Below, piece after piece: positions 833 to 33,113 of a DNA stretch of 35,205 nt (positions are counted from its first letter, which is position 1; each line of letters opens with the position of its first letter). This stretch comes from a virus. The stretch lies in the UHGV virus genome UHGV-0178511; one strand, written 5' to 3'. The notes beneath the pieces were generated by a model that was not told the DNA's origin, searched no databases, and saw only the letters and a list, made by a program, of their open reading frames with translations. The translations under genes and the position numbers were made by a program.

Positions 833-1025
833 TCTGCTTTTCCTGCATCAGGAGAAAGACAATCATGGCGGCGCGGATACTTCCGGTATCTTTTTACGCG
901 ATATTCCCCTTCAATGGCACATACAAGAAGAGAGCCATCAACAGGAGTGATTGAGGAATCGACAACCAGCAACGCTTAATTATCTATAGTGTCGTATTTG
1001 CTTCATAAAATATGGCGAATAACAC

Positions 1026-1059
1026 AAAGCCCGCAGCAGCTCATTGTGCGGGCTTTTCT
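1026..1059. terminator. Candidate bidirectional intrinsic terminator
   Basis: Perfect 10-bp stem aaagcccgca/tgcgggcttt followed by a T-rich tract, just downstream of the minus-strand 1126-1740 gene. Confidence 0.4.
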
Positions 1060-1125
1060 TATACCTACTTCCTAGAGATAATTCTATGGAGGCATTAAAT
1101 CAATACTGTCATTGGTAATATCATA

Positions 1126-1740
1126 TTATCTAAAAGTCTTTCCACTTTTAACATCTAGGTATATTCTGTTCGACAACGTCATTCCTCCGCAATATGTGAA
1201 ATAGATGTTTTCACCCTTATTGCTTGATGCCATCCACCCTCCGATTTCCTTAAAATCGCTTTCCGTGCAGACCCCTTCATTTATTAACTTCCTAGCTGCC
1301 GAAGAAAACTCTTTTTTGTATATACGGTAGTCATCAGATCCTTTGATTAAAGTATCATCTCCGCTCGCATTTTCAGCAGGATCTGATGGCCTTTCACTGC
1401 TAAGATCACTAAGTTTAACCCATTCTGAAAACTTGCCATTAACGATTCCATTTTTTCTTGTGCAGGATTTATTACCTTCTTTAATATATTCGCTTTCCCC
1501 TCCAACACATGAGGCTGAATATGGCTCAGTTATACGAACCCATTCACCTTTTTTTTCTAGAAAATCTACGCCTTCCCTGAAAAATAGTTTCCCAGCCACT
1601 CCACATTTACTTGAAGGGCAGGTATGTCTTTCCGTTCGATCAACAACAACCCATAGTTTTGATTCATTTTTTGCCATTGCCGATGGTATTTGAGATGAGA
1701 CAATTAACGTAAGCCCTAAAATTAGTATTGATTTTTTCAT
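1126..1740 (-). CDS. Secreted Cys-rich protein with N-terminal signal peptide; moron-like accessory gene
   Basis: N-terminus MKKSILILGLTLIVSSQIPSAMA|KNE is a typical signal peptide with AxA site; visibly AT-rich relative to neighbours; AAGGA RBS; hairpin downstream. Confidence 0.6.
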   Translation of the reverse strand: MKKSILILGLTLIVSSQIPSAMAKNESKLWVVVDRTERHTCPSSKCGVAGKLFFREGVDFLEKKGEWVRITEPYSASCVGGESEYIKEGNKSCTRKNGIVNGKFSEWVKLSDLSSERPSDPAENASGDDTLIKGSDDYRIYKKEFSSAARKLINEGVCTESDFKEIGGWMASSNKGENIYFTYCGGMTLSNRIYLDVKSGKTFR

Positions 1741-2898: not shown

Positions 2899-3090
2899 TC
2901 ATACCTGGTCTCTCTCATCTGCTTCTGCTTTCGCCACCATCATTTCCAGCTTTTGTGAAAGGGATGCGGCTAACGTATGAAATTCTTCGTCTGTTTCTAC
3001 TGGTATTGGCACAAACCTGACTCCAATTTGAGCGAGGCTATGTGCCATCTCGATACTCGTTCTTAACTCAACGGGAGATGCTTTGTGCAT
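2899..3090 (-). CDS. Lambda orf63-like small protein
   Basis: 63-aa ORF; overlapping arrangement with neighbours as in lambda. Confidence 0.5.
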   Translation of the reverse strand: MHKASPVELRTSIEMAHSLAQIGVRFVPIPVETDEEFHTLAASLSQKLEMMVAKAEADERDQV

Positions 3091-8604: not shown

Positions 8605-8751
8605 ATGACAAAACAACTCAGTCCTTACCAGGACAAAATTCACAAACACATACTACGTGATCGCTTCCTGTCCAGCTTCAAGCAGCCTGGTCGATTCCGG
8701 GCTGAGTTGGAAAAAGTGAAGCTGATGCAGAAGGAGAAAGGTCATGAGTAA
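8605..8751 (+). CDS. Small ORF between cII-like gene and replication initiator (48 aa)
   Basis: ATG at 8605, stop overlapping the O-like start; P22 has a similar short ORF here. Confidence 0.35.
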
Positions 8752-9643
8752 CATATCTAATCTAGCCGAAGCCAGAGAGGCCAGAAGGCTACAACAACCG
8801 CATCAAAGCAGCGGTAAGGGGTATGCCTTGCTGCACCGTAAAATTATGGATGTGCCGTTTTACAAGGACGCAGAAGCAGCGCATCTGTGGGTTCACTTAA
8901 TCCTCAAAGCAAAGCATACGCCTGAGTATGTAATGACTGACGCAGGAGAAATTCTGGTAGGCAGAGGGAAGCTACTTGGCGGTAGAAACTCTCTGGCGTT
9001 TGAAACAGGACTCAAACCAGATCGCGTTCAGTACCTGCTTAGAAAGTTCAAAAAACTCGGCATGATTGACTGGGTTTCACACGGTAAATTCTCAGTTTTC
9101 TCGGTAGAGAAATATGACGATTATCAGTCAAATTTTGTACCAGCAGATTACCAGCAAATTACCACCTCAAAGCCAGCAATACCAATGCCTGCAAGCAATA
9201 CTGTACCAGCAGATTACCAGCAAATTACCACAGATAAAGAATATAATAATATTATCTCTAATACTGACGTATTAGAGAGTACCGCAGCAGACAAAAAGTC
9301 TGACAAGAAAAAACCTTCCGTTAGCTGTCAGGATGTTGTCGATGCTTACCACGAAATCCTTCCTGAAGCGCCAAGAATCCGCGCACTGAATGACAAGCGT
9401 AAAAACCAGATCCGAACGTTCTGGCGCAAAGCCGGAGTGATAACCCGCCAGCTTGACGGGCATGGGTTCACGATGCAGGACTGGAGAAATTATTTGAGCT
9501 ACGTAGGCGAAAATTGCCGATGGATGTTCGAAGAGCGCCCAAACCATCAACGCGGAACCGTCTGGCACAAAAAGGGATTTGATTTCCTGCTTAACGATAA
9601 TACCTACCTGAAAGTTCGTGAGGGTGAACACGATGACCGATAA
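8744..9643 (+). CDS. Replication initiator, lambda O family
   Basis: 299 aa; position after cII; internal iterons and AT-rich tract (see repeat feature). Confidence 0.8.
9138..9270 (+). repeat. Candidate replication origin: two exact ~29-bp iterons plus AT-rich tract inside the initiator gene
   Basis: gtaccagcagattaccagcaaattaccac occurs twice about 65 bp apart (encoding [10 protein letters not shown] twice), followed by aaagaatataataatattatctctaatactgac. Confidence 0.5.
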
Positions 9644-11069
9644 TTTTTATGCGCCGCCCCATAGTATCGAGGCAGAGCAGGCGGTGATTGGTGGATTGCT
9701 TCTGGATGATGACAGCAGTGAGCGCGTCCAGAAAGTTCTGGCGATGCTGAAGCCTGATTCATTTTACAGCCGACCACACAAAATCCTTTTCGAAGAAATA
9801 ACCAGAATGCACCGTGAGCAAAAGCCAGTAGATGGCCTGACGCTTTTCGATGAACTGGAGCGTAAATCGTTAACGGCGTCTGTTGGCGGTTTTGCTTATA
9901 TCGCTGAGATCGCAAAGAACACGCCAAGCGCAGCAAACATCGTTGCTTATGCAATGCAGGTTCGTGAAACCGCAATGGAACGCTACGCCATCAACCGCAT
10001 GACTGAAGCGACGGAATTGCTCTATTCCCGCAACGGAATGACTGCAACGCAGAAGTACGAAGCTATTCAGGCGATTTTCACGCAACTGACAGACCATGCA
10101 AAAACCGGATCGCGTCGCGGCCTTCGCTCATTTGGTGAGGTCATGGAAGACTGGGTTAGCGACCTTGAGAAGCGATTTGACCCGTCAGGCGAACAACGAG
10201 GAATGAGCACAGGGATCCCATCTCTGGACAGGATGCTGTCACCGAAAGGTCTGGTGAAAGGCTCTCTGTTCGTCATTGGCGCTCGCCCTAAGATGGGGAA
10301 AACGACGCTATACAGCCAGATGGCAATCAACTGCGCAGTGCATGAGAAAAAGCCCGCTCTGATGTTCAGTCTTGAAATGCCAGGCGACCAGATACTGGAA
10401 AAGCTGGTAGGACAGAAGTCAGGTGTTAACCCGAATATTTTTTACCTTCCGGCGACAAATGACGCTGATGACGGCTATCAGGGTGATTACGATGGTGACT
10501 TCAACAGGGCGATAGAAACAGCAAATCGCTTGAGTGAAATCGACATGCTTTACATCGACGACACGCCGGGATTATCTCTGGCTCAAATCGTCAGCGAAAG
10601 CCGTCGAATCAAGCGAGAAAAAGGATGTGTTGGCATGATTCTGGTCGATTACCTGACACTAATGACCGCTGAGAAGGCCGATCGCAACGACCTTGCTTAC
10701 GGCATGATCACCAAAGGACTGAAGAACCTTGCCAAAGAGCTTGATTGCGTTGTTGTGCTTCTGACGCAGCTTAACCGCGCACTGGAAAGCCGAACCAATA
10801 AACGCCCATTACCAAGTGACTCACGAGATACAGGGCAGATTGAACAGGATTGCGATTATTGGGTTGGGATCCATCGTGAAGGCGCTTTTGATGACAGTGT
10901 TCCACCTGGTGAAACTGAACTAATCCTTCGTCTCAATCGTCATGGCAATACCGGCACGGTGTATTGCATTCAGGCAAATGGCGCTATTTATGACACAGAC
11001 CAACAGTCTGCTGAAATGCGCCGCCGTGAACGCGAGGAACCGCAGTCCAAGAAGAAAGGAGGATTCTGA
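9633..11069 (+). CDS. DnaB-family replicative helicase (P22 gene 12-like)
   Basis: Walker A GARPKMGKT; N-terminal PHSIEAEQAVIGG; start at ATG 9633 overlapping the initiator stop (track ORF starts 9618). Confidence 0.9.
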   Translation: MTDNFYAPPHSIEAEQAVIGGLLLDDDSSERVQKVLAMLKPDSFYSRPHKILFEEITRMHREQKPVDGLTLFDELERKSLTASVGGFAYIAEIAKNTPSAANIVAYAMQVRETAMERYAINRMTEATELLYSRNGMTATQKYEAIQAIFTQLTDHAKTGSRRGLRSFGEVMEDWVSDLEKRFDPSGEQRGMSTGIPSLDRMLSPKGLVKGSLFVIGARPKMGKTTLYSQMAINCAVHEKKPALMFSLEMPGDQILEKLVGQKSGVNPNIFYLPATNDADDGYQGDYDGDFNRAIETANRLSEIDMLYIDDTPGLSLAQIVSESRRIKREKGCVGMILVDYLTLMTAEKADRNDLAYGMITKGLKNLAKELDCVVVLLTQLNRALESRTNKRPLPSDSRDTGQIEQDCDYWVGIHREGAFDDSVPPGETELILRLNRHGNTGTVYCIQANGAIYDTDQQSAEMRRREREEPQSKKKGGF

Positions 11070-11096
11070 TGACCATCTACATCACTGAGCTAATAA

Positions 11097-11128
11097 CAGG
11101 CCTGCTGGTAATCGCAGGCCTTTTTATT
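11097..11128 (+). terminator. Intrinsic terminator (lambda tR2-like)
   Basis: caggcctgc-tggtaatc-gcaggcct hairpin followed by tttttattt, between helicase and ninB. Confidence 0.6.
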
Positions 11129-11145
11129 TGGGGGAGAGGGAAGTC

Positions 11146-11586
11146 ATGAAAAAACTAACCTTTGAAATTCGATCTCCAGCACATCAGCAAAACGCTATTC
11201 ACGCAGTACAGCAAATCCTTCCAGACCCAACCAAACCAATCGTAGTAACCATTCAGGAACGCAACCGCAGCTTAGACCAAAACAGGAAGCTATGGGCTTG
11301 CCTTGGTGACGTCTCTAGTCAGGTTGAATGGCATGGTCGCTGGCTGGATGCAGAAAGCTGGAAGTGTGTGTTTACCGCAGCATTAAAGCAGCAGGATGTT
11401 GTTCCTAACCTTGCCGGGAATGGCTTTGTGGTAATAGGCCAGTCAACCAGCAGGATGCGTGTAAGCGAATTTGCGGAGCTATTAGAGCTTATACAGGCAT
11501 TCGGTACAGAGCGTGGCGTTAAGTGGTCAGACGAAGCGAGACTGGCTCTGGAGTGGAAAGCGAGATGGGGAGACAGTGCTGCATGA
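11146..11586 (+). CDS. ninB: NinB (Orf recombination mediator)
   Basis: MKKLTFEIRSPAHQQNAIHAVQQILPDPTKPIVVTIQERNRSLDQNRKLWACLGDV...; recalled as near-identical to lambda NinB. Confidence 0.9.
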   Translation: MKKLTFEIRSPAHQQNAIHAVQQILPDPTKPIVVTIQERNRSLDQNRKLWACLGDVSSQVEWHGRWLDAESWKCVFTAALKQQDVVPNLAGNGFVVIGQSTSRMRVSEFAELLELIQAFGTERGVKWSDEARLALEWKARWGDSAA

Positions 11587-12110
11587 CTATCAAATCAAAT
11601 ACGCCATCACACGACAAGGACTGCTGGCAAACGCCGCTCTGGCTTTTTGATGCGCTGGATATTGAGTTTGGATTCTGGCTGGATTCGGCAGCGAGCGACA
11701 AAAATGCTCTGTGCGCTCACTGGCTAACTGAGGCTGACGACGCGCTAAATTCTGAGTGGATAAGCCACGGTGCAATCTGGAATAACCCACCGTACAGCAA
11801 TATCAGGCCGTGGGTGGAAAAAGCCGCTGAGCAGAGCATACAACAGCGACAGACGGTAGTGATGCTTGTGCCAGAGGATATGTCAGTCGGATGGTTCAGC
11901 AAGGCTCTGGAGAGTGTTGACGAAGTTCGCATCATCACTGATGGACGGATTAATTTTATCGAACCATCGACAGGGCTGGAGAAGAAGGGAAACAGTAAAG
12001 GCTCAATGCTGCTGATTTGGCGACCGTTCATCAGTCCTCGACGGATGTTTACTACCGTATCCAAAGCGGCATTGATGGCGATCGGGCAGGGCGTCAGGAG
12101 GGCAGCATGA
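11583..12110 (+). CDS. Phage-type DNA N6-adenine methyltransferase (orphan, Dam-like)
   Basis: NPPY motif (IWNNPPYS); start ATG overlaps ninB stop (ATGA); no adjacent restriction endonuclease candidate. Confidence 0.8.
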
Positions 12111-12289
12111 GACGACAGCGACGAAGTATCACCGACATCATCTGCGAAAACTGCAAATACCTTCCAACGAAACGCTCCAGAAATAAACGCAAGCCAATCC
12201 CAAAAGAATCTGACGTAAAAACCTTCAATTACACGGCTCACCTGTGGGATATCCGGTGGCTTAGAGAACGTGCGAGGAAAACAAGGTGA
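12107..12289 (+). CDS. ninE: NinE
   Basis: 60-aa product [40 protein letters not shown]...; ATGA overlap with the methyltransferase stop. Confidence 0.7.
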
Positions 12290-12456
12290 TTGACCCAAAT
12301 CGAAGTTACGAACAAGAAAGCGTCGAGCGGGCTTTAACGTGCGCTAACTGCGGTCAGAAACTGCATGTGCTGGAAGTTCACGTGTGCTCCGATTGCTGCG
12401 CAGAACTGATGAGCGATCCGAATAGCTCAATGTACGAGGAAGAAGACGATGAATGA
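12286..12456 (+). CDS. ninF: NinF-like small Cys-containing protein
   Basis: Apparent GTG start overlapping ninE stop; [33 protein letters not shown]...; start codon uncertain. Confidence 0.5.
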
Positions 12457-13171
12457 GTTAATAAATGGCAATGCCATCAAAATGACAAGCATTGAAATCG
12501 CTGAGTTGGTGGGTAAGCGTCATGACAATGTGAAACGTACCATCGAAACGCTGGCTAAAAATGGTGTTATCCGGCTTCCTCAAATTGAGGTTTCCGAAAG
12601 AATCAATAACTTAGGGTTCAATGTTCAGTACGAGCATTACGTCTTCGAGGGCGAACAAGGTAAGCGAGACAGTATTGTCGTTGTTGCCCAGTTGTCGCCA
12701 GAGTTCACCGCTCGCCTTGTTGACCGCTGGCGAGAGCTTGAAGAAGCTGCGGTTAATATCCCCAAAACGCTACCGGAAGCGTTGCGCCTTGCTGCCGATC
12801 TTGCTGAGCAGAAAATGCAACTGGAAAACCAGCTCGCAATTGTCGCACCTAAAGTTGAGTTTGCCGATCGCGTTGGCGAGGCCAGCGGAATTTTGATTGG
12901 AAACTTTGCAAAGGTTGTTGGTATTGGTCAAAACAAACTGTTTGCGTGGATGCGTGATCACAAAATCCTTATTGCTTCAGGTTCCCGGCGCAATGTGCCA
13001 ATGCAGGAATATATGGATCGCGGCTATTTCACAGTGAAAGAAACAGCGGTCAACACAAATCACGGAATACAGATATCGTTCACCACAAAAATCACCGGGC
13101 GCGGTCAACAGTGGCTGACCAGAAAGTTGCTCGATAACGGAATGCTGAAAGTAACAGGGGAGGCTGCTTAA
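12449..13171 (+). CDS. Rha/Roi-like phage regulatory protein (antirepressor-type domains)
   Basis: 240 aa, [35 protein letters not shown]...; family assignment from memory, moderate. Confidence 0.6.
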   Translation: MNELINGNAIKMTSIEIAELVGKRHDNVKRTIETLAKNGVIRLPQIEVSERINNLGFNVQYEHYVFEGEQGKRDSIVVVAQLSPEFTARLVDRWRELEEAAVNIPKTLPEALRLAADLAEQKMQLENQLAIVAPKVEFADRVGEASGILIGNFAKVVGIGQNKLFAWMRDHKILIASGSRRNVPMQEYMDRGYFTVKETAVNTNHGIQISFTTKITGRGQQWLTRKLLDNGMLKVTGEAA

Positions 13172-13461
13172 TGGCTAACCTACGCAAAGAAGCACGCGGC
13201 AGAGAATGCCAGGTACGTATTTACGGCGTATGCAATGGCAATCCTGAAACTACAGTTCTGGCACATTACCGGATGGCTGGAATTTGCGGAACGGGAATGA
13301 AGCCTGACGACCTGATCGGTGCATGGGCTTGTAGTGCGTGTCACGATGAAATCGACCGACGCACCCATAATCTCGACAACAAAGACGCCAGACTTTACCA
13401 CCTCGAAGGCGTGATCAGAACGCAGGCGATACTGCTGAGGGAGGGGAAGATTAAGTCATGA
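13171..13461 (+). CDS. YbcO-like small Cys/His-rich protein adjacent to rusA
   Basis: 96 aa with CxVRIYGVC...CSACHDEID; same position and length as DLP12 ybcO as I recall. Confidence 0.55.
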   Translation: MANLRKEARGRECQVRIYGVCNGNPETTVLAHYRMAGICGTGMKPDDLIGAWACSACHDEIDRRTHNLDNKDARLYHLEGVIRTQAILLREGKIKS

Positions 13462-13820
13462 ACGAATATCAGTTTGTGCTTCCATACCCGCCGTCGGTGA
13501 ATACCTACTGGCGAAGACGGGGAAGCCAATATTACATAAGCGATAAAGGCCAGAAATACCGAAAAGACGTTCAGCAAATCATCCGCCAACTCAAGTTAGA
13601 CATTTTCACCAAATCACGACTCCGTATCAAAGTCATCGCAGACGTTCCAGACTCCCGCCGCCGCGACCTCGACAACATCCTGAAAGGTTTACTCGACTCC
13701 CTTATCCACGCCGGATTTGCGGAAGACGACGAGCAATTCGATGACATTCGCGTAATTCGTGGTGTGAAAGTACCAGGCGGACGGCTTGGAATAAAAATCA
13801 CCGAACTGGAGAACGCATGA
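13458..13820 (+). CDS. rusA: RusA Holliday-junction resolvase
   Basis: 120 aa; PDSRRRDLDNILKGLLDSLIHAGF parallels E. coli RusA [24 protein letters not shown]. Confidence 0.9.
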   Translation: MNEYQFVLPYPPSVNTYWRRRGSQYYISDKGQKYRKDVQQIIRQLKLDIFTKSRLRIKVIADVPDSRRRDLDNILKGLLDSLIHAGFAEDDEQFDDIRVIRGVKVPGGRLGIKITELENA

Positions 13821-14005
13821 ACGCCACAATTCAAACGATACCAGAGCTTCTTATCCAGACACGAGGCAATCAGACCGAAGTGGCAAGGATGCTTTCCTGC
13901 GCAAGAGGAACAGTGCTCAAGTACAACCGAGACAGCAAAGGCGAGCGTCACGTAATAGTTAACGGCGTCCTGATGGTCAAACAGGGCAAGAGGGGAAGAC
14001 GATGA
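13817..14005 (+). CDS. ninH: NinH-like small DNA-binding protein
   Basis: GNQTEVARMLSCARGTVLKY HTH; resembles lambda NinH. Confidence 0.65.
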   Translation: MNATIQTIPELLIQTRGNQTEVARMLSCARGTVLKYNRDSKGERHVIVNGVLMVKQGKRGRR

Positions 14006-14625
14006 GACTAGAAAGCGTAGCTAAATTTCATTCGCCAAAAAGCCCGATGATGAGCGACTCACCACGGGCTACGGCTTCTGACTCTCTTTCCGGTACTGAT
14101 GTGATGGCTGCTATGGGGATGGCGCAATCACAAGCCGGATTCGGCATGGCTGCATTCTGTGGTAAGCACGAACTCAGCCAGAACGACAAACAAAAGGCTA
14201 TCAACTATCTGATGCAATTTGCACACAAGGTATCGGGGAAATACCGTGGTGTGGCAAAGCTCGAAGGAAATACTAAGGCAAAGGTACTGCAAGTGCTCGC
14301 AACATTCGCTTATGCGGATTATTGCCGTAGTGCCGCGACGCCGGGCGCAAGATGCAGAGATTGCCACGGTACAGGCCGTGCGGTTGATATAGCAAAAACA
14401 GAGCAGTGGGGGAGAGTTGTCGAGAAAGAGTGCGGAAGATGCAAAGGCGTCGGCTATTCAAGGATGCCAGCAAGCGCCGCATATCGCGCTGTGACGATGC
14501 TAATCCCAAACCTTACCCAACCCACCTGGTCACGCACCGTTAAGCCGCTGTATGACGCTCTGGTGGTGCAATGCCACAAAGAAGAGTCAATCGCAGACAA
14601 CATTTTGAATGCGGTCACACGTTAG
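14002..14625 (+). CDS. Q: Late-gene antiterminator Q (lambda type)
   Basis: 207 aa, MRLESVAKFHSPKSPMMSDSPRATASDSLSGTDVMAAMGMAQSQAGF...; recalled as essentially lambda Q. Confidence 0.95.
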   Translation: MRLESVAKFHSPKSPMMSDSPRATASDSLSGTDVMAAMGMAQSQAGFGMAAFCGKHELSQNDKQKAINYLMQFAHKVSGKYRGVAKLEGNTKAKVLQVLATFAYADYCRSAATPGARCRDCHGTGRAVDIAKTEQWGRVVEKECGRCKGVGYSRMPASAAYRAVTMLIPNLTQPTWSRTVKPLYDALVVQCHKEESIADNILNAVTR

Positions 14626-30344: not shown

Positions 30345-33113
30345 ATGGCTAATTACCGTGATTTGTTAGAGCAGGCTGGCGCACGTTACGGTGTGCCAGA
30401 AGGGTTGATGACTGCACTGGGTGCCAAGGAGTCTTCTTACAACCCTGCCGCAGTAAGCTCCGCCGGGGCTGTAGGATTGACTCAGGTCATGCCTGGGACA
30501 TGGCGTGATATGGGTTATACCGATGAGCAAATGCAAAACCCCGAATATCAGGCTGACGCTGGCGCGCGCTATCTGGCAAAGATGTACCAGCAGTTTGGTA
30601 ACTGGCGTGATGCTCTTCAGGCTTATCACGACGGTCCCGGCAACGTTATGAAGGCAAAGCGTGGTGAATATACGCCAGGACCTGAAGGCCGCGGTTACGT
30701 TGATGATCGCTTTGCTCAATGGGCGGGTGACCCGGTGACAGACTCAACAGTCGAACAGCGCGCCACCTCTGCAAAGGTACATCCTCAGCAAGACCCTAAC
30801 AACCCGTTTGCACAACTGGAAGCACAGTCATCCGAACAAGTATCGGCATCAGGTGTGCAGTCAGACCCAAATAATCCATTTGCTCAGATTGAGCAGCAGG
30901 CAGCCAGTCAGCAGCCACCTCAACCCGTAAGTTCTGTCGCACCGAAACCTGTTCAGCAACAAACAGTTAATCAGGCCAATAATGAACCAGCACGTGAAGA
31001 ACCATCATTGATGCAACAAGCTGGCGATTGGCTCACAGGTGGTCAAAGTGCAGGGCAAATTACAGAGCAGGCTGGTCGTGGTCTGGTAAACATACCATTT
31101 GACGTATTGCAGGGTGGCGCAAGTCTGATTAATGCAATCAGCCAGGGGCTTGGTGGGCCAAAAGTATTGGATGATGTCTATCGTCCAGTCGACCGACCGA
31201 CAGATCCTTACGCGCAAGCTGGAGAGTCAATAGGCGGTTATCTTGTTCCTGGAGCAGGTGTAACTGGAAACATGGTCATTGGTTCTCTCGCTGACGCGGC
31301 GAATCAACGGGGTGATTTTGCCGAAAATGCCGCTATTAATGCCGGACTTAACATTGCTACGCATGGCCTGATAAATGGCGTTACCCATGGTGTTCGTGGT
31401 GCATCAAATATAATTAGTGGCAATAAAACATCTGCACAGAGAGCGACCACTGCGGCAACAGAAACATCACCATTCTCCGGTACTGCGCCAACAGAAACAT
31501 CACCATTCTCCGGTGATGCCGCTGCAGCAACAAATCCTGCGGTTCATGCCGCAGAGGCAAGAGCAGCACAAGGTGTACCAATGACGCCTGCGACGAGGGA
31601 CCCAGAGGAGGTCGTCCGCACAGTAGCAGCACAAAAAAGGCCAAATCTCGCTTCATCGCTTGATGAACTAGATATCAATCCTCAGGCTGAAGTTCTGGAG
31701 TCTGCTGAAAGGCTTAATGTTGATTCATTACTCCCTTCACACTTTTCCGGGAACGAGCAATACAAGGCAGTTGAGCAAGCAATCAAGTCCCGTGCGGGTT
31801 CCGCTCTACGGGTGCAGGAAAATGAAGCAATCAGGCAACTAGCACAGGGCGCGGGGGAGATAATTGATCGCGTTTCCGGTGCAAAAGATGCTCTTGGTAT
31901 GAGCGACAAGTTTATTGATACGATCAATGGAAGAATGTCTGCGCTGATGAAACGAAGCGACCAGCTTTATCGCAATGTTGAAAAGGCGATGCCTGCAGGT
32001 GCAAAAATTGATGCGCCATCAACAAGGTCAATGCTCAAACAGGTGGCAGAAGATCTTGGCGGGATGAAAAACCTTGACCCTATTGAAAAGAGAGTCTTTC
32101 GGGCAGTTAATCCAGGCAAGAACGGCGCATTAACTTATGCAAATCTCAATAAGCAACGACGACTTGTTGGTGATGCACTTCATAAGAATTCTGGACCATA
32201 TAAAGATGCTGATCGCGCTGCTTTATCGAGGCTTTACGGTTCGCTCGCCGATGATCAAAAGGCGGCGCTGTCAGAGACAAATGCATTACGTGATTTTGAA
32301 GTTGCTCAGAGGCTTGTTCAGATGCGAAAAAGCATGGAAGAGCAAATGATTAATCTAACTGGCAGAACGCTGAACGGTGATGTTTCTCGCAAAGCAACTA
32401 CAGCACTACAGGCAATGTCGAAAGGCGATGCCAAAGGATTTCGTGAATTGATGCAAAACACGCCGTCCAGGAAGCTAAGAACCGAGCTACTGGGAACAGG
32501 TCTTCGGGATATGCTTTCGAACGGAAAACGTGGCGCTGATTTTAATCCTGCAGGGTTTGCTGACTGGTATCAAAACATGTTAGCAAACGGGCAGATGCGC
32601 AATCTTGCCCGACATTTACCAAAAGAGACTATGTCAGGTCTGAACGATGTATATAAGGTCGCAAAGGCTATCAAAGATGCAAAATCTTACGAGATAACTA
32701 CAGGAAGACTAAACGAGTTCGTCAAACGGTTTAATCGCGTCACTGCGGCAAATGAATTTGTTGCTAACCATGCCCAACGCATTGGCACTGCGGTTGGTTC
32801 AACTGTGTCAGGACCGTTCAGTGCAGTAGGTGCTGTTGCTGGGTCAGAAATTGGGGCAAAAGTCGCCAGCAAAATCAGGGCGATGGGCGGCGCTGAATCA
32901 ATTGAATCTGCAGAAAAGCTAATTAGCTCACCAGAATTCCAGAAAGCAGCAAGGCTGGCAGTAAAACAAGCACCAGAAAGCATCGTTGATACAACTGTAA
33001 GACGCTCTTCTGCTTGGCGCTCGTTTTACAACTCACTTCCAGAATCAGATAAGAAAACCATATCAAGGCTAGGCATCATGTACTGGATGAACAGTGATGA
33101 TAACCAGAAGTAA
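30345..33113 (+). CDS. Large ejection protein with N-terminal lytic transglycosylase (SLT) domain (P22 gene 16 position)
   Basis: 922 aa; SLT motifs [27 protein letters not shown] in the first ~120 aa; internal peptide repeats. Confidence 0.8.

Follow-up and report, generated by a model that had tools for sequence, protein, structure and literature searches.

The lambdoid-phage micro-gene ninA as a probably translated 26-codon reading frame across terminator tR2, between a DnaB-type helicase gene and ninB

The micro-gene ninA has been recorded in the lambdoid phages 21 (CAB39987), P22 (YP_063725), HK620, mEp234 (AFM76324), Sf6 (as gene 45), and lambda, where it is listed as 'orf26' in an annotation note of phage 434. 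A literature search on 'orf26' returned nothing relevant. In P22, HK620, and epsilon34 the annotated gene has the same location, which in Sf6 is taken up by gene 45, tR2, and the boundary sequence bsq6. N-modified polymerase reads through tR2 in lambda. The nin region is described as a chain of ATGA-linked genes in those passages of PMC8022706 and PMC4824070 that cite Kroger and Hobom (1982), and ninA is the only link of the lambda ninR chain whose coding sequence holds a terminator. The lambda tR2 sequence terminates transcription in vivo with an efficiency of ~0.9 (PMC4824070). Two other described systems bear on this arrangement. Boundary sequences such as bsq6 of Sf6 are likewise short near-identical blocks between otherwise unrelated modules. 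The pyrBI leader resembles ninA as a short ORF that runs through an intrinsic terminator, whose hairpin could in principle be masked by translation.

The ORF analyzed here is located in the virus genome UHGV-0178511, of which a stretch of 35,205 nucleotides (the window) was examined. The ORF starts with ATG on the + strand, encodes the 26-residue peptide MTIYITELITGLLVIAGLFIWGRGKS, and lies in the early right operon with the DnaB helicase gene directly 5' and ninB directly 3'. One base is common to the helicase stop and the ORF start (tcTGATGa), and four bases are common to the ORF stop and the ninB start (tcATGAa). The coordinates of all features are presented in Table 1.

Table 1. Coordinates of the features at the ninA locus (positions in the window).
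Feature	Coordinates	Strand	Basis or remark
DnaB-type replicative helicase gene	9633..11069	+	Pfam DnaB and DnaB_C; final base of TGA 11067-11069 is the A of the ninA ATG
Shine-Dalgarno AGGAGG	11057..11062	+	6 nt ahead of the ninA start, within the final codons of the helicase gene; read from sequence
ninA micro-ORF, 26 codons and stop	11069..11149	+	ORF list, peptide identity, phrog_5907; stop TGA 11147-11149
ninA codons 1-10 (MTIYITELIT), conserved 5' cassette edge	11069..11098	+	lambda homology starts at 11068
tR2 intrinsic terminator	11098..11129	+	arms 11098-11105 and 11114-11121, loop 11106-11113, T-run 11122-11129
G/A-rich run GGGGGAGAGGGAAG, probable ribosome-binding region (SD) for ninB	11130..11143	+	coding for NinA residues 21-25 as well
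ninB (orf) recombination mediator gene	11146..11586	+	Pfam NinB; ATG 11146-11148 overlaps the ninA TGA (ATGA)

The encoded peptide is identical to AFM76324.1, the 'NinA protein' of mEp234 (UniRef K7PHM1), and matches phrog_5907 over its full length with an E-value of 1.6e-19. No model for the peptide was found in Pfam or NCBIfam, and no Rfam family was detected for the ninA/tR2 region at E-values up to 1. The Pfam models DnaB and DnaB_C were matched by the translation of 9618-11066; the helicase start at ATG 9633 was adopted from the 1437-nt annotation in mEp234, the ORF list giving 9618..11069. Pfam NinB was matched over 11146-11583 with an E-value of 3.4e-54, and ninB is identical to lambda ninB at 435 of 441 nucleotides. 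The gene order of the window (replication or ren genes, ninA, and then ninB or another nin gene) is also that of mEp234, P22, epsilon34, and 434. The upstream neighbor is a DnaB-type helicase gene here and in mEp234, HK106, and Sf6, and ren in lambda, 434, and 21. The position, the terminator, and the stop/start overlaps are those of the known ninA genes, from which nothing substantive differs. Judged from the peptide and its position, the ORF is the already named micro-gene ninA; it is not new, and is an ordinary link in the chain of overlapping genes.

In the window, this chain comprises nine consecutive overlapping junctions between 11069 and 14625. The probability that one such gap would be bridged by chance (start on stop, open frame, and stop on start) is ~0.002, which is a rough order-of-magnitude estimate only. 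Because of this low probability, a chance origin is unlikely, and the layout also recurs in hundreds of phages.

The hairpin enclosed by the ORF has an 8-bp stem with 6 G-C pairs and a loop of 8, and is followed by TTTTATTT at 11122-11129. A folding energy of -16.7 kcal/mol (z of -2.7) was calculated. A G+C-rich hairpin with a U-run immediately after it is the pattern of an intrinsic terminator, and the same sequence is annotated as tR2 in Sf6 and HK620, and in P22 as a terminator 'similar to phage lambda'. The window region is 98% identical to lambda 40566-40848, where ninA occupies 40567-40647, and no difference was detected from lambda tR2 in the hairpin/T-run sequence or its place in the pR operon; on this comparison, the element is identified as lambda tR2. 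The pattern GGCCTGC-N8-GCAGGCC-T5 was rejected as a marker for ninA, being a generic terminator hairpin that matched more than 120 unrelated bacteria when used against bacterial genome contigs.

The preliminary description of the window had placed a 26-codon ORF across a tR2-like terminator, overlapping the helicase stop and the ninB start. The ORF and its overlaps are confirmed by the sequence and the ORF list, the flanking genes by their Pfam matches, and the terminator by its hairpin and T-run and by the annotations in Sf6 and HK620. The suggestion that the overlaps resemble translational coupling is supported, and fits both the published ATGA-linked chain and the nine junctions seen here. 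The ORF was not recognized there as the named gene ninA.

A 101-nt query spanning 11060-11160 gave matches in 421 phage records and at 3016 places in 2060 of 5426 complete E. coli genomes (38%). A search for related loci with NinB returned only 99%-identical copies. Six non-homologous gene ends were found upstream of ninA, encoding the window-type DnaB helicase, a P22 gp12-type helicase, a Ren family member, a primase-helicase, a 102-aa protein, and a 93-aa protein, and the stop lies on or adjoins the ninA ATG in each. At least eight different genes were found downstream, with start codons that overlap the ninA stop or lie no more than ~25 nt from it. The run GGGGGAG(A/G)G is retained ahead of at least eight different genes in this position, with their starts at SD-like spacing. 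A short near-identical block in six unrelated upstream and at least eight downstream contexts has the character of a lambdoid boundary sequence. The same first 30 nt (codons 1-10) lead into three different continuations, and insertions of an HNH endonuclease and of HK97 gp60 occur right after codon 10. In HK022-type phages, tR2 and the ribosome site precede ninB with no ORF across them. Since the cassette has its own ribosome site and this site stands before ninB in HK022-type phages without the ORF, ninB does not need coupling.

The ORF could be a passive by-product, with selection acting only on tR2, on the next ribosome site, and on a short patch of recombination homology, and with the peptide as noise. 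Such an origin would be in keeping with the tR2 of HK022-type loci, with the annotation of the same 81 nt as bsq6 in Sf6, and with inter-phage homology that begins exactly at the ninA start codon and stops where the next gene starts. The gene is also not called by PGAP/RefSeq in the E. coli genomes. The block differs from a mere patch of homology in that a terminator and a ribosome site are included, as is an ORF for which each upstream gene supplies an SD-like run.

These upstream SD-like runs bear directly on the by-product explanation. The motif GGAG, GAGG, AGGAGG, or AAGGGG is located 6-9 nt before the ninA ATG in all six unrelated upstream genes, against a background of 5% for such motifs; the combined P for six runs is ~1e-6 to 1e-7 by our own arithmetic from the background values. 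The duplex of the AGGAGG in the window with the anti-SD has an energy of -11.6 kcal/mol, and no control position among 10,050 in the window forms as strong a duplex. In a published reporter, mutation of the NinA RBS or AUG restored expression of the upstream RFP, and the start site was described as 'not weak' (PMC4824070). A lambda ribosome-profiling study is cited for the NinA start in the same paper (PMC4824070).

Sequence variation was analyzed in 270 copies of ninA that were sampled independently of frame. In codons 2-10, none of 9 second positions is variable, compared with 12 of the 18 other positions (Fisher P of 0.001). The alleles of these codons comprise 9 synonymous, 7 conservative missense, and 1 nonsense change. 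The synonymous excess is modest (P of 0.016) and loses significance when only transitions are counted, and a shifted-frame control gave a similar synonymous count (8 vs 9). Because of this control, the coding argument rests on the invariance of the second positions and on the other frames being closed; over the ninA region only the ninA frame is open. Between P22 and the window, the first 30 nt differ at 5 sites, of which 4 are synonymous, and nucleotides 31-75 are identical. The second-position variants T2I and E7G are present in a larger protein collection. The first ten codons appear to be under mild constraint at the protein level.

The rest of the peptide presents a different picture. L12Q, a non-conservative replacement in the hairpin loop, is common, and the tail codons 21-26 are radically variable (W21L/C, G22E/W, and K25E) while the hairpin, T-run, and SD are invariant. 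Selection on the hydrophobic residues 11-20 is weakly suggested. The preliminary description had doubted the hydrophobic stretch as a possible reflection of the terminator stem, and with good reason: these residues are encoded by the bases of the hairpin arms and T-run. Its reading had also been made to depend on the frame being kept in relatives, and 259 of the 270 copies retain the start codon and have an ORF of normal length. With divergence this low, 96% intact ORFs are also expected without selection. The other 11 copies are broken or of atypical length, and 7 of them are clearly destroyed: a lineage of 5 with a 1-nt deletion, one with a nonsense change, and one with a stop at W21. Lambda remains viable with the nin5 deletion, in which ren-ninA-ninI are lost (PMC3349717). 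In view of the broken copies and of this deletion, the NinA peptide is dispensable.

The persistence of broken copies, the invariant nucleotide elements beside a radically varying tail, and hydrophobic residues dictated by the terminator would all suit a by-product. A noncoding spacer would yield neither the invariant second positions of codons 2-10 nor the mostly synonymous P22/lambda-type differences, and the SD-like runs at the right spacing in six unrelated genes and the activity of the NinA start in the reporter (PMC4824070) also count against it. The by-product explanation is therefore disfavored, and we consider it unlikely. Translation of ninA is indirectly supported by the SD-like runs, the variety of downstream genes that start at or near its stop, the codon-position pattern, and the published reporter.

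If ninA is translated, its product might be a functional small membrane protein, the terminator being accommodated within the coding sequence so that the bases serve a dual purpose. Residues 3-21 are hydrophobic and of transmembrane length (the best 17-residue Kyte-Doolittle mean is 2.08) and are followed by R/K, the replacements in codons 2-10 are only conservative, and the NinA family is large enough for a PHROG of its own. The HK97 gp56-type and HK022-type continuations are also hydrophobic in frame, the latter without a hairpin (z of +0.34). The HK022-type 34-aa variant was initially regarded as strong evidence for a membrane peptide, and this was mostly withdrawn: the continuation is the AT-rich edge of the inserted HNH endonuclease gene, and composition may account for its hydrophobicity. 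In the other two continuations, the residues are dictated by the T-run and hairpin. The common L12Q, the circulation of loss-of-function copies, and the deletability of the region also speak against a membrane protein, and no function, partner, or phenotype of NinA is reported in the literature examined. A membrane function is doubtful, though somewhat less so than a by-product origin. In a further proposal, which is about as improbable as that origin, full-length NinA as a membrane peptide may report antitermination, with 24 bases selected both as hairpin and as membrane segment and with the cassette as a preferred landing site for mobile genes. If this were true, only read-through transcripts would carry the NinA stop, and the stop-less product of terminated ones would be subject to rescue and degradation.

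The remaining alternative is that ninA acts as a pyrBI-type attenuator leader, with read-through tuned by a ribosome that follows the polymerase closely and occludes the 5' arm of tR2. Like the pyrBI leader, the ORF extends across the terminator, and with the hairpin starting at codon 10, a ribosome at codons 6-9 would by geometry cover the 5' arm. The codons CTA and ATA occupy positions 8-9, and both are rare in E. coli. Stalling at this pair was rejected as a mechanism since the codons are not conserved, being TTG GTA in P22 and CTG, CTT, ATC, or ATG in other copies. A short ORF over an intrinsic terminator is present, and the alternative antiterminator structure of an attenuator is absent: the best alternative has an energy of -3.4 to -4.1 kcal/mol, compared with -15.4 kcal/mol for the hairpin. 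When 60 nt of upstream window sequence were included and the 3' arm was blocked, the best fold changed from -31.5 to -18.6 kcal/mol, with no stable pairing of the 5' arm. In lambda, moreover, it is N that brings about read-through. A nearby ribosome masks tR2 strongly, and silencing of NinA translation in the reporter changed the efficiency of tR2 by only ~10%, translation being the condition that lowered it (PMC4824070). ninA is unlike pyrBI in this small effect and in having no conserved pause or regulatory codons; it ends on the start of the next gene and is not upstream of a structural gene's own leader. Attenuation of this type is very improbable.

The reading we prefer and consider probable is that ninA is translated and that its micro-ORF coincides with a portable cassette of ~80 bp, completing the chain of translation; any role of the peptide as such is putative. 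The parts of the cassette would be a start overlapping the preceding stop, ten spacer codons, tR2, and the ribosome-binding run of the next gene. tR2 is masked when it lies few bp after a stop codon, and its efficiency is maximal beyond ~30 bp (PMC4824070). Codons 1-10 form a 28-nt spacer from the upstream stop codon to the hairpin, so that ribosomes stopping at the end of the helicase gene would be too far away to mask tR2. Restarting or loading of ribosomes at the AUG that overlaps the stop would be aided by the AGGAGG. Where transcription continues past tR2, ribosomes would cross the hairpin and stop on the ninB AUG, and the overlapping chain from the helicase to the nin genes would thereby be translated without a break. 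Transcripts ending at tR2 would carry an ORF without a stop codon, from whose 3' end ribosomes would run off and need rescue; in the reporter, such an ORF on tR2-ended transcripts halved expression of the upstream gene (PMC4824070). The predicted product is a 26-residue hydrophobic peptide, the hydrophobic half of which would be largely dictated by the hairpin and T-run.

As a discovery, the locus carries little weight, the gene, the terminator, the gene chain, and the boundary-sequence idea being already in the literature or database records. ninA illustrates clearly how a conserved micro-ORF can be skipped by annotation pipelines. As a natural intrinsic terminator within an ORF that is probably translated, it would be useful for the study of ribosome-polymerase interplay and of the fate of stop-less transcripts. 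The cassette gives a base-pair view of how lambdoid modules are joined, with mobile genes inserting at one point.

The micro-ORF between the DnaB-type helicase gene and ninB was analyzed by ORF prediction, Pfam search, pattern scan, and folding. All elements of the preliminary description (the micro-ORF, its overlaps with the helicase stop and the ninB start, and the terminator inside it) were found to be correct. At the upstream junction (TGATG) the last base of the helicase stop codon is the A of the ninA start codon. The tR2 hairpin has a folding energy of –16.7 kcal/mol (z –2.7). The ninB gene of the window is identical to lambda ninB at 435 of 441 nt.

Coordinates of the ninA region in the window and of two loci with other arrangements
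Feature	Position	Strand	Remarks
Helicase ORF, 3' end	TGA 11067-11069	+	Pfam DnaB and DnaB_C
ninA micro-ORF	11069-11149	+	encodes MTIYITELITGLLVIAGLFIWGRGKS
Terminator-like site	arms 11098-11105 and 11114-11121	+	single one in the ORF (pattern scan); 8-nt loop, then TTTTATTT
ninB start	ATG 11146-11148	+	Pfam NinB domain; overlaps ninA TGA 11147-11149
HK97 gp56/gp60 segment	L406 401..698 (HK97 32059..32356)		second kind of insertion/replacement at the same point of ninA
HK022-type locus	L428 759..1504 (IMGVR_UViG_2690315742_000008)		

A megablast search with positions 10900-11350 matched 414 phage records. Lambda, 434, and 21 are homologous to the window from position 11068 onward; there, the upstream gene of those phages is ren and not the helicase. 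The identical 81 nt are annotated in the mEp234 record as "NinA protein, similar to phage 21 NinA". The ninA gene is also annotated in the records of P22, with an internal terminator "similar to phage lambda", of HK620, together with tR2, and of epsilon34. In the Sf6 record the same bases are covered by gene 45 ("similar to phage 21 NinA"), by tR2, and by a misc_feature entitled "bsq6; boundary sequence"; the phage 434 record gives a hypothetical protein resembling lambda Orf26 and places a terminator inside it. The exact peptide is deposited as NinA in NCBI and UniRef and matches phrog_5907 (unknown function) with an E value of 1.6e-19; searches of Pfam, NCBIfam, and Rfam with ninA returned no family. 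Because the sequence is identical and the position and terminator are the same, the micro-ORF is, at the level of sequence, a member of ninA and not a mere look-alike.

A 101-nt query (11060-11160) matches 421 phage records and is present in 2060 of 5426 complete E. coli genomes, at up to six places per genome, with 21 places on plasmids. At the E. coli matches, RefSeq/PGAP annotation covers NinB and the helicase only, and ninA is unannotated. More than 120 unrelated bacterial genomes, ranging from Bacteroidota to Alphaproteobacteria (loci L153-L272), contain the tR2 stem motif GGCCTGC-N8-GCAGGCC-T5, so the hairpin alone is a generic terminator and is not diagnostic of lambdoid phages.

Approximately 280 copies of the cassette, the block of about 80 bp that holds ninA and tR2, were gathered from IMG/VR and a phage collection. 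The conserved block begins at the ninA ATG and reaches the start codon of the following gene. It is preceded by six unrelated gene ends: the window-type DnaB helicase, the P22 gp12-type helicase, the Ren family (including two diverged relatives), a large primase-helicase, a 102-aa protein, and a 93-aa protein. At least eight different genes follow the block, and their first plausible start overlaps the ninA stop or lies within ~25 nt, in the forms ATGA, GTGA, GTGGCTGA, TAAATG, and ATGATG. The sequence GGGGGAG(A/G)G after the T-run is retained in most downstream contexts at a Shine–Dalgarno-like spacing and is therefore read as the probable ribosome site of the next gene.

A putative ribosome site for ninA itself is supplied by all six upstream genes, as GGAG, GAGG, GGGAG, AGGAGG, or AAGGGG located 6-9 nt before the ATG. 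Pairing of the window AGGAGG with the anti-Shine–Dalgarno sequence (–11.6 kcal/mol) exceeds that at all 10,050 control positions, and a core motif is found at 5% of these positions. The presence of the core motif in five of the six contexts gives P ~2e-6 and the Fisher combination of the six energies ~1e-7, both calculated by hand from the control-position values with the Ren relatives counted as one context. The ninA frame is the only open one, with stops in both other plus-strand frames and, in the first 30 nt, in all three minus-strand frames (reverse complement read by hand).

Previously, the NinA start was included in a reporter of Li et al. in which tR2 was preceded by 48 nt of native lambda sequence (PMC4824070). 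Upstream RFP was approximately halved with the NinA start and was restored by mutation of the NinA RBS or AUG; the decrease was attributed to stop-less translation on tR2-terminated RNA, and the NinA site, active in this reporter, was termed "not weak" (PMC4824070). Kroger and Hobom 1982 and a lambda ribosome-profiling study are credited there for the NinA start. In the window, ninA opens a series of nine consecutive overlapping or abutting stop/start junctions of plus-strand genes from 11069 to 14625 (TGATG, six ATGA, GTGA, ATGAATGA, and TAATG). The proposal that the micro-ORF is a coupling-like bridge is supported and agrees with this chain, in which the 77 nt holding tR2 would be the sole untranslated gap if the ninA ORF were removed. 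A Dam-type methyltransferase gene (Pfam Dam, 11583..12110) is part of the chain, and its own ATG overlaps the ninB stop. A 299-aa ORF (8744..9643) upstream of the helicase sits where relatives annotate replication protein O; no Pfam-A match to it was obtained at E up to 0.001.

Masking of tR2 in the lambda reporter series was almost complete a few bp from a stop codon; tR2 efficiency was ~0.8 with 18 bp of natural sequence in between and maximal (~0.9) beyond 30 bp (PMC4824070). The distance from the upstream stop to the hairpin is 28 nt in the window. The ten 5' codons of ninA may thus serve as a spacer that holds the terminating ribosome off tR2, with ribosomes restarting at the overlapping AUG. 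On read-through transcripts these ribosomes would translate through the hairpin and terminate on the start codon of the next gene, closing the translation chain, and on terminated transcripts they would run off the stop-less 3' end.

The codons CTA and ATA, which precede the hairpin, are rare in E. coli. A pyrBI-like attenuator role for ninA is unlikely because these two codons are not conserved, no alternative fold competes with the hairpin (–3.4 to –4.1 versus –15.4 kcal/mol), and translation from the NinA start lowers tR2 efficiency by only ~10% (PMC4824070).

The ninA frame encodes a hydrophobic run of 17-19 residues (Kyte–Doolittle mean 2.08), after which come R and K. Of the two further frames compared for hydrophobicity, one is interrupted by stops and the other encodes a polar sequence. 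The hairpin arms (GGC CTG CTG ... GCA GGC) and the T-run (CTT TTT ATT) directly specify residues 11-20, and the earlier caution that the hydrophobicity could merely reflect the terminator stem stands. It appears doubtful that NinA functions as a membrane peptide and that its synthesis to full length requires antitermination.

Selection on the peptide was assessed in codons 2-10, outside the hairpin, using 270 anchor-sampled copies. The 12 variable sites comprise seven first, five third, and no second positions (Fisher P 0.0011); the second-position variants T2I and E7G are present in a much larger protein collection. The alleles are nine synonymous, seven missense (T2A, I3V, I5V, L8I, I9V, I9M, and T10A, all conservative), and one nonsense, a synonymous excess with P 0.016 that lacks significance when only transitions are counted. 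Changes in the tail codons are radical (W21L/C/stop, G22E/W, K25E), and the hairpin-loop change L12Q is common. Within the first 30 nt, P22 shows five differences from the window (ACC>ACT, ATC>ATT, CTA>TTG, ATA>GTA), four of them synonymous, versus none in nt 31-75, the pattern expected if selection acted on the codons of the 5' part and, in the middle, on the RNA and the ribosome site. These comparisons suggest an only moderate signal of peptide-level selection in codons 2-10.

Conservation of the frame in relatives had been named as the check that could refute the micro-ORF, and 259 of the 270 copies retain an ORF of the usual length. This 96% is not in itself evidence of selection because the divergence is so low. 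Four copies have frameshifts near the 3' end, and seven, which may represent real lineages or assembly errors, are destroyed: five by a common 1-nt codon-2 deletion (ATGACC to ATGAC) in the IMG/VR prophage-like contigs L320, L324, L359, L363, and L382, one by an E7 stop (L329), and one by a W21 stop (L091).

Two other continuations share the first ten codons of ninA. In the HK97 gp56 type these codons lead into another hairpin, of 10 bp and with a T6 run, whose register is exactly that of the lambda-type one (–17.4 kcal/mol, z –5.3); gp56 is followed by gp60, for which no Pfam match was found, then by the last 16 nt of the lambda-type cassette and ninB. Many NCBI names for the gp56-like 32-aa variant are "histone H1", which looks like a propagated misannotation. 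In a further locus (L066, IMGVR_UViG_2778261297_000006) an ORF from 993 fuses the ninA N-terminus (MTIYITELITGATYTVAF...) in frame to at least 86 aa, and the HK97-type variant hairpin appears altered.

The HK022 type is a 34-aa hydrophobic peptide without a hairpin (z +0.34). In L428, a 203-aa gene (Pfam HNH_3 and AP2, 841..1452) is inserted just after ninA codon 10, and the ninA frame continues 24 codons into the insert. This variant was rejected as evidence for a selected membrane segment since its continuation is the AT-rich edge of the inserted HNH gene, and its hydrophobicity may be compositional. The tR2 hairpin of this locus (1451..1478) starts right at the HNH stop codon, directly before ninB, with no ORF across it; terminator and ORF are therefore separable. 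By the published distance rule this tR2 should be masked by the terminating ribosome.

Both ninA and its terminator are known from earlier work, as are the ATGA chain and the concept of boundary sequences. The gene is among the non-essential nin genes, and the nin region is described as tightly packed genes linked by ATGA motifs, credited to Kroger and Hobom 1982 (PMC8022706; PMC3349717; PMC2629481). Three minor refinements are added here: the independent supply of the ribosome site by six upstream genes, the codon-position pattern in ninA codons 2-10, and a common insertion point just after codon 10 for the HNH endonuclease gene and the HK97 gp56/gp60 segment.
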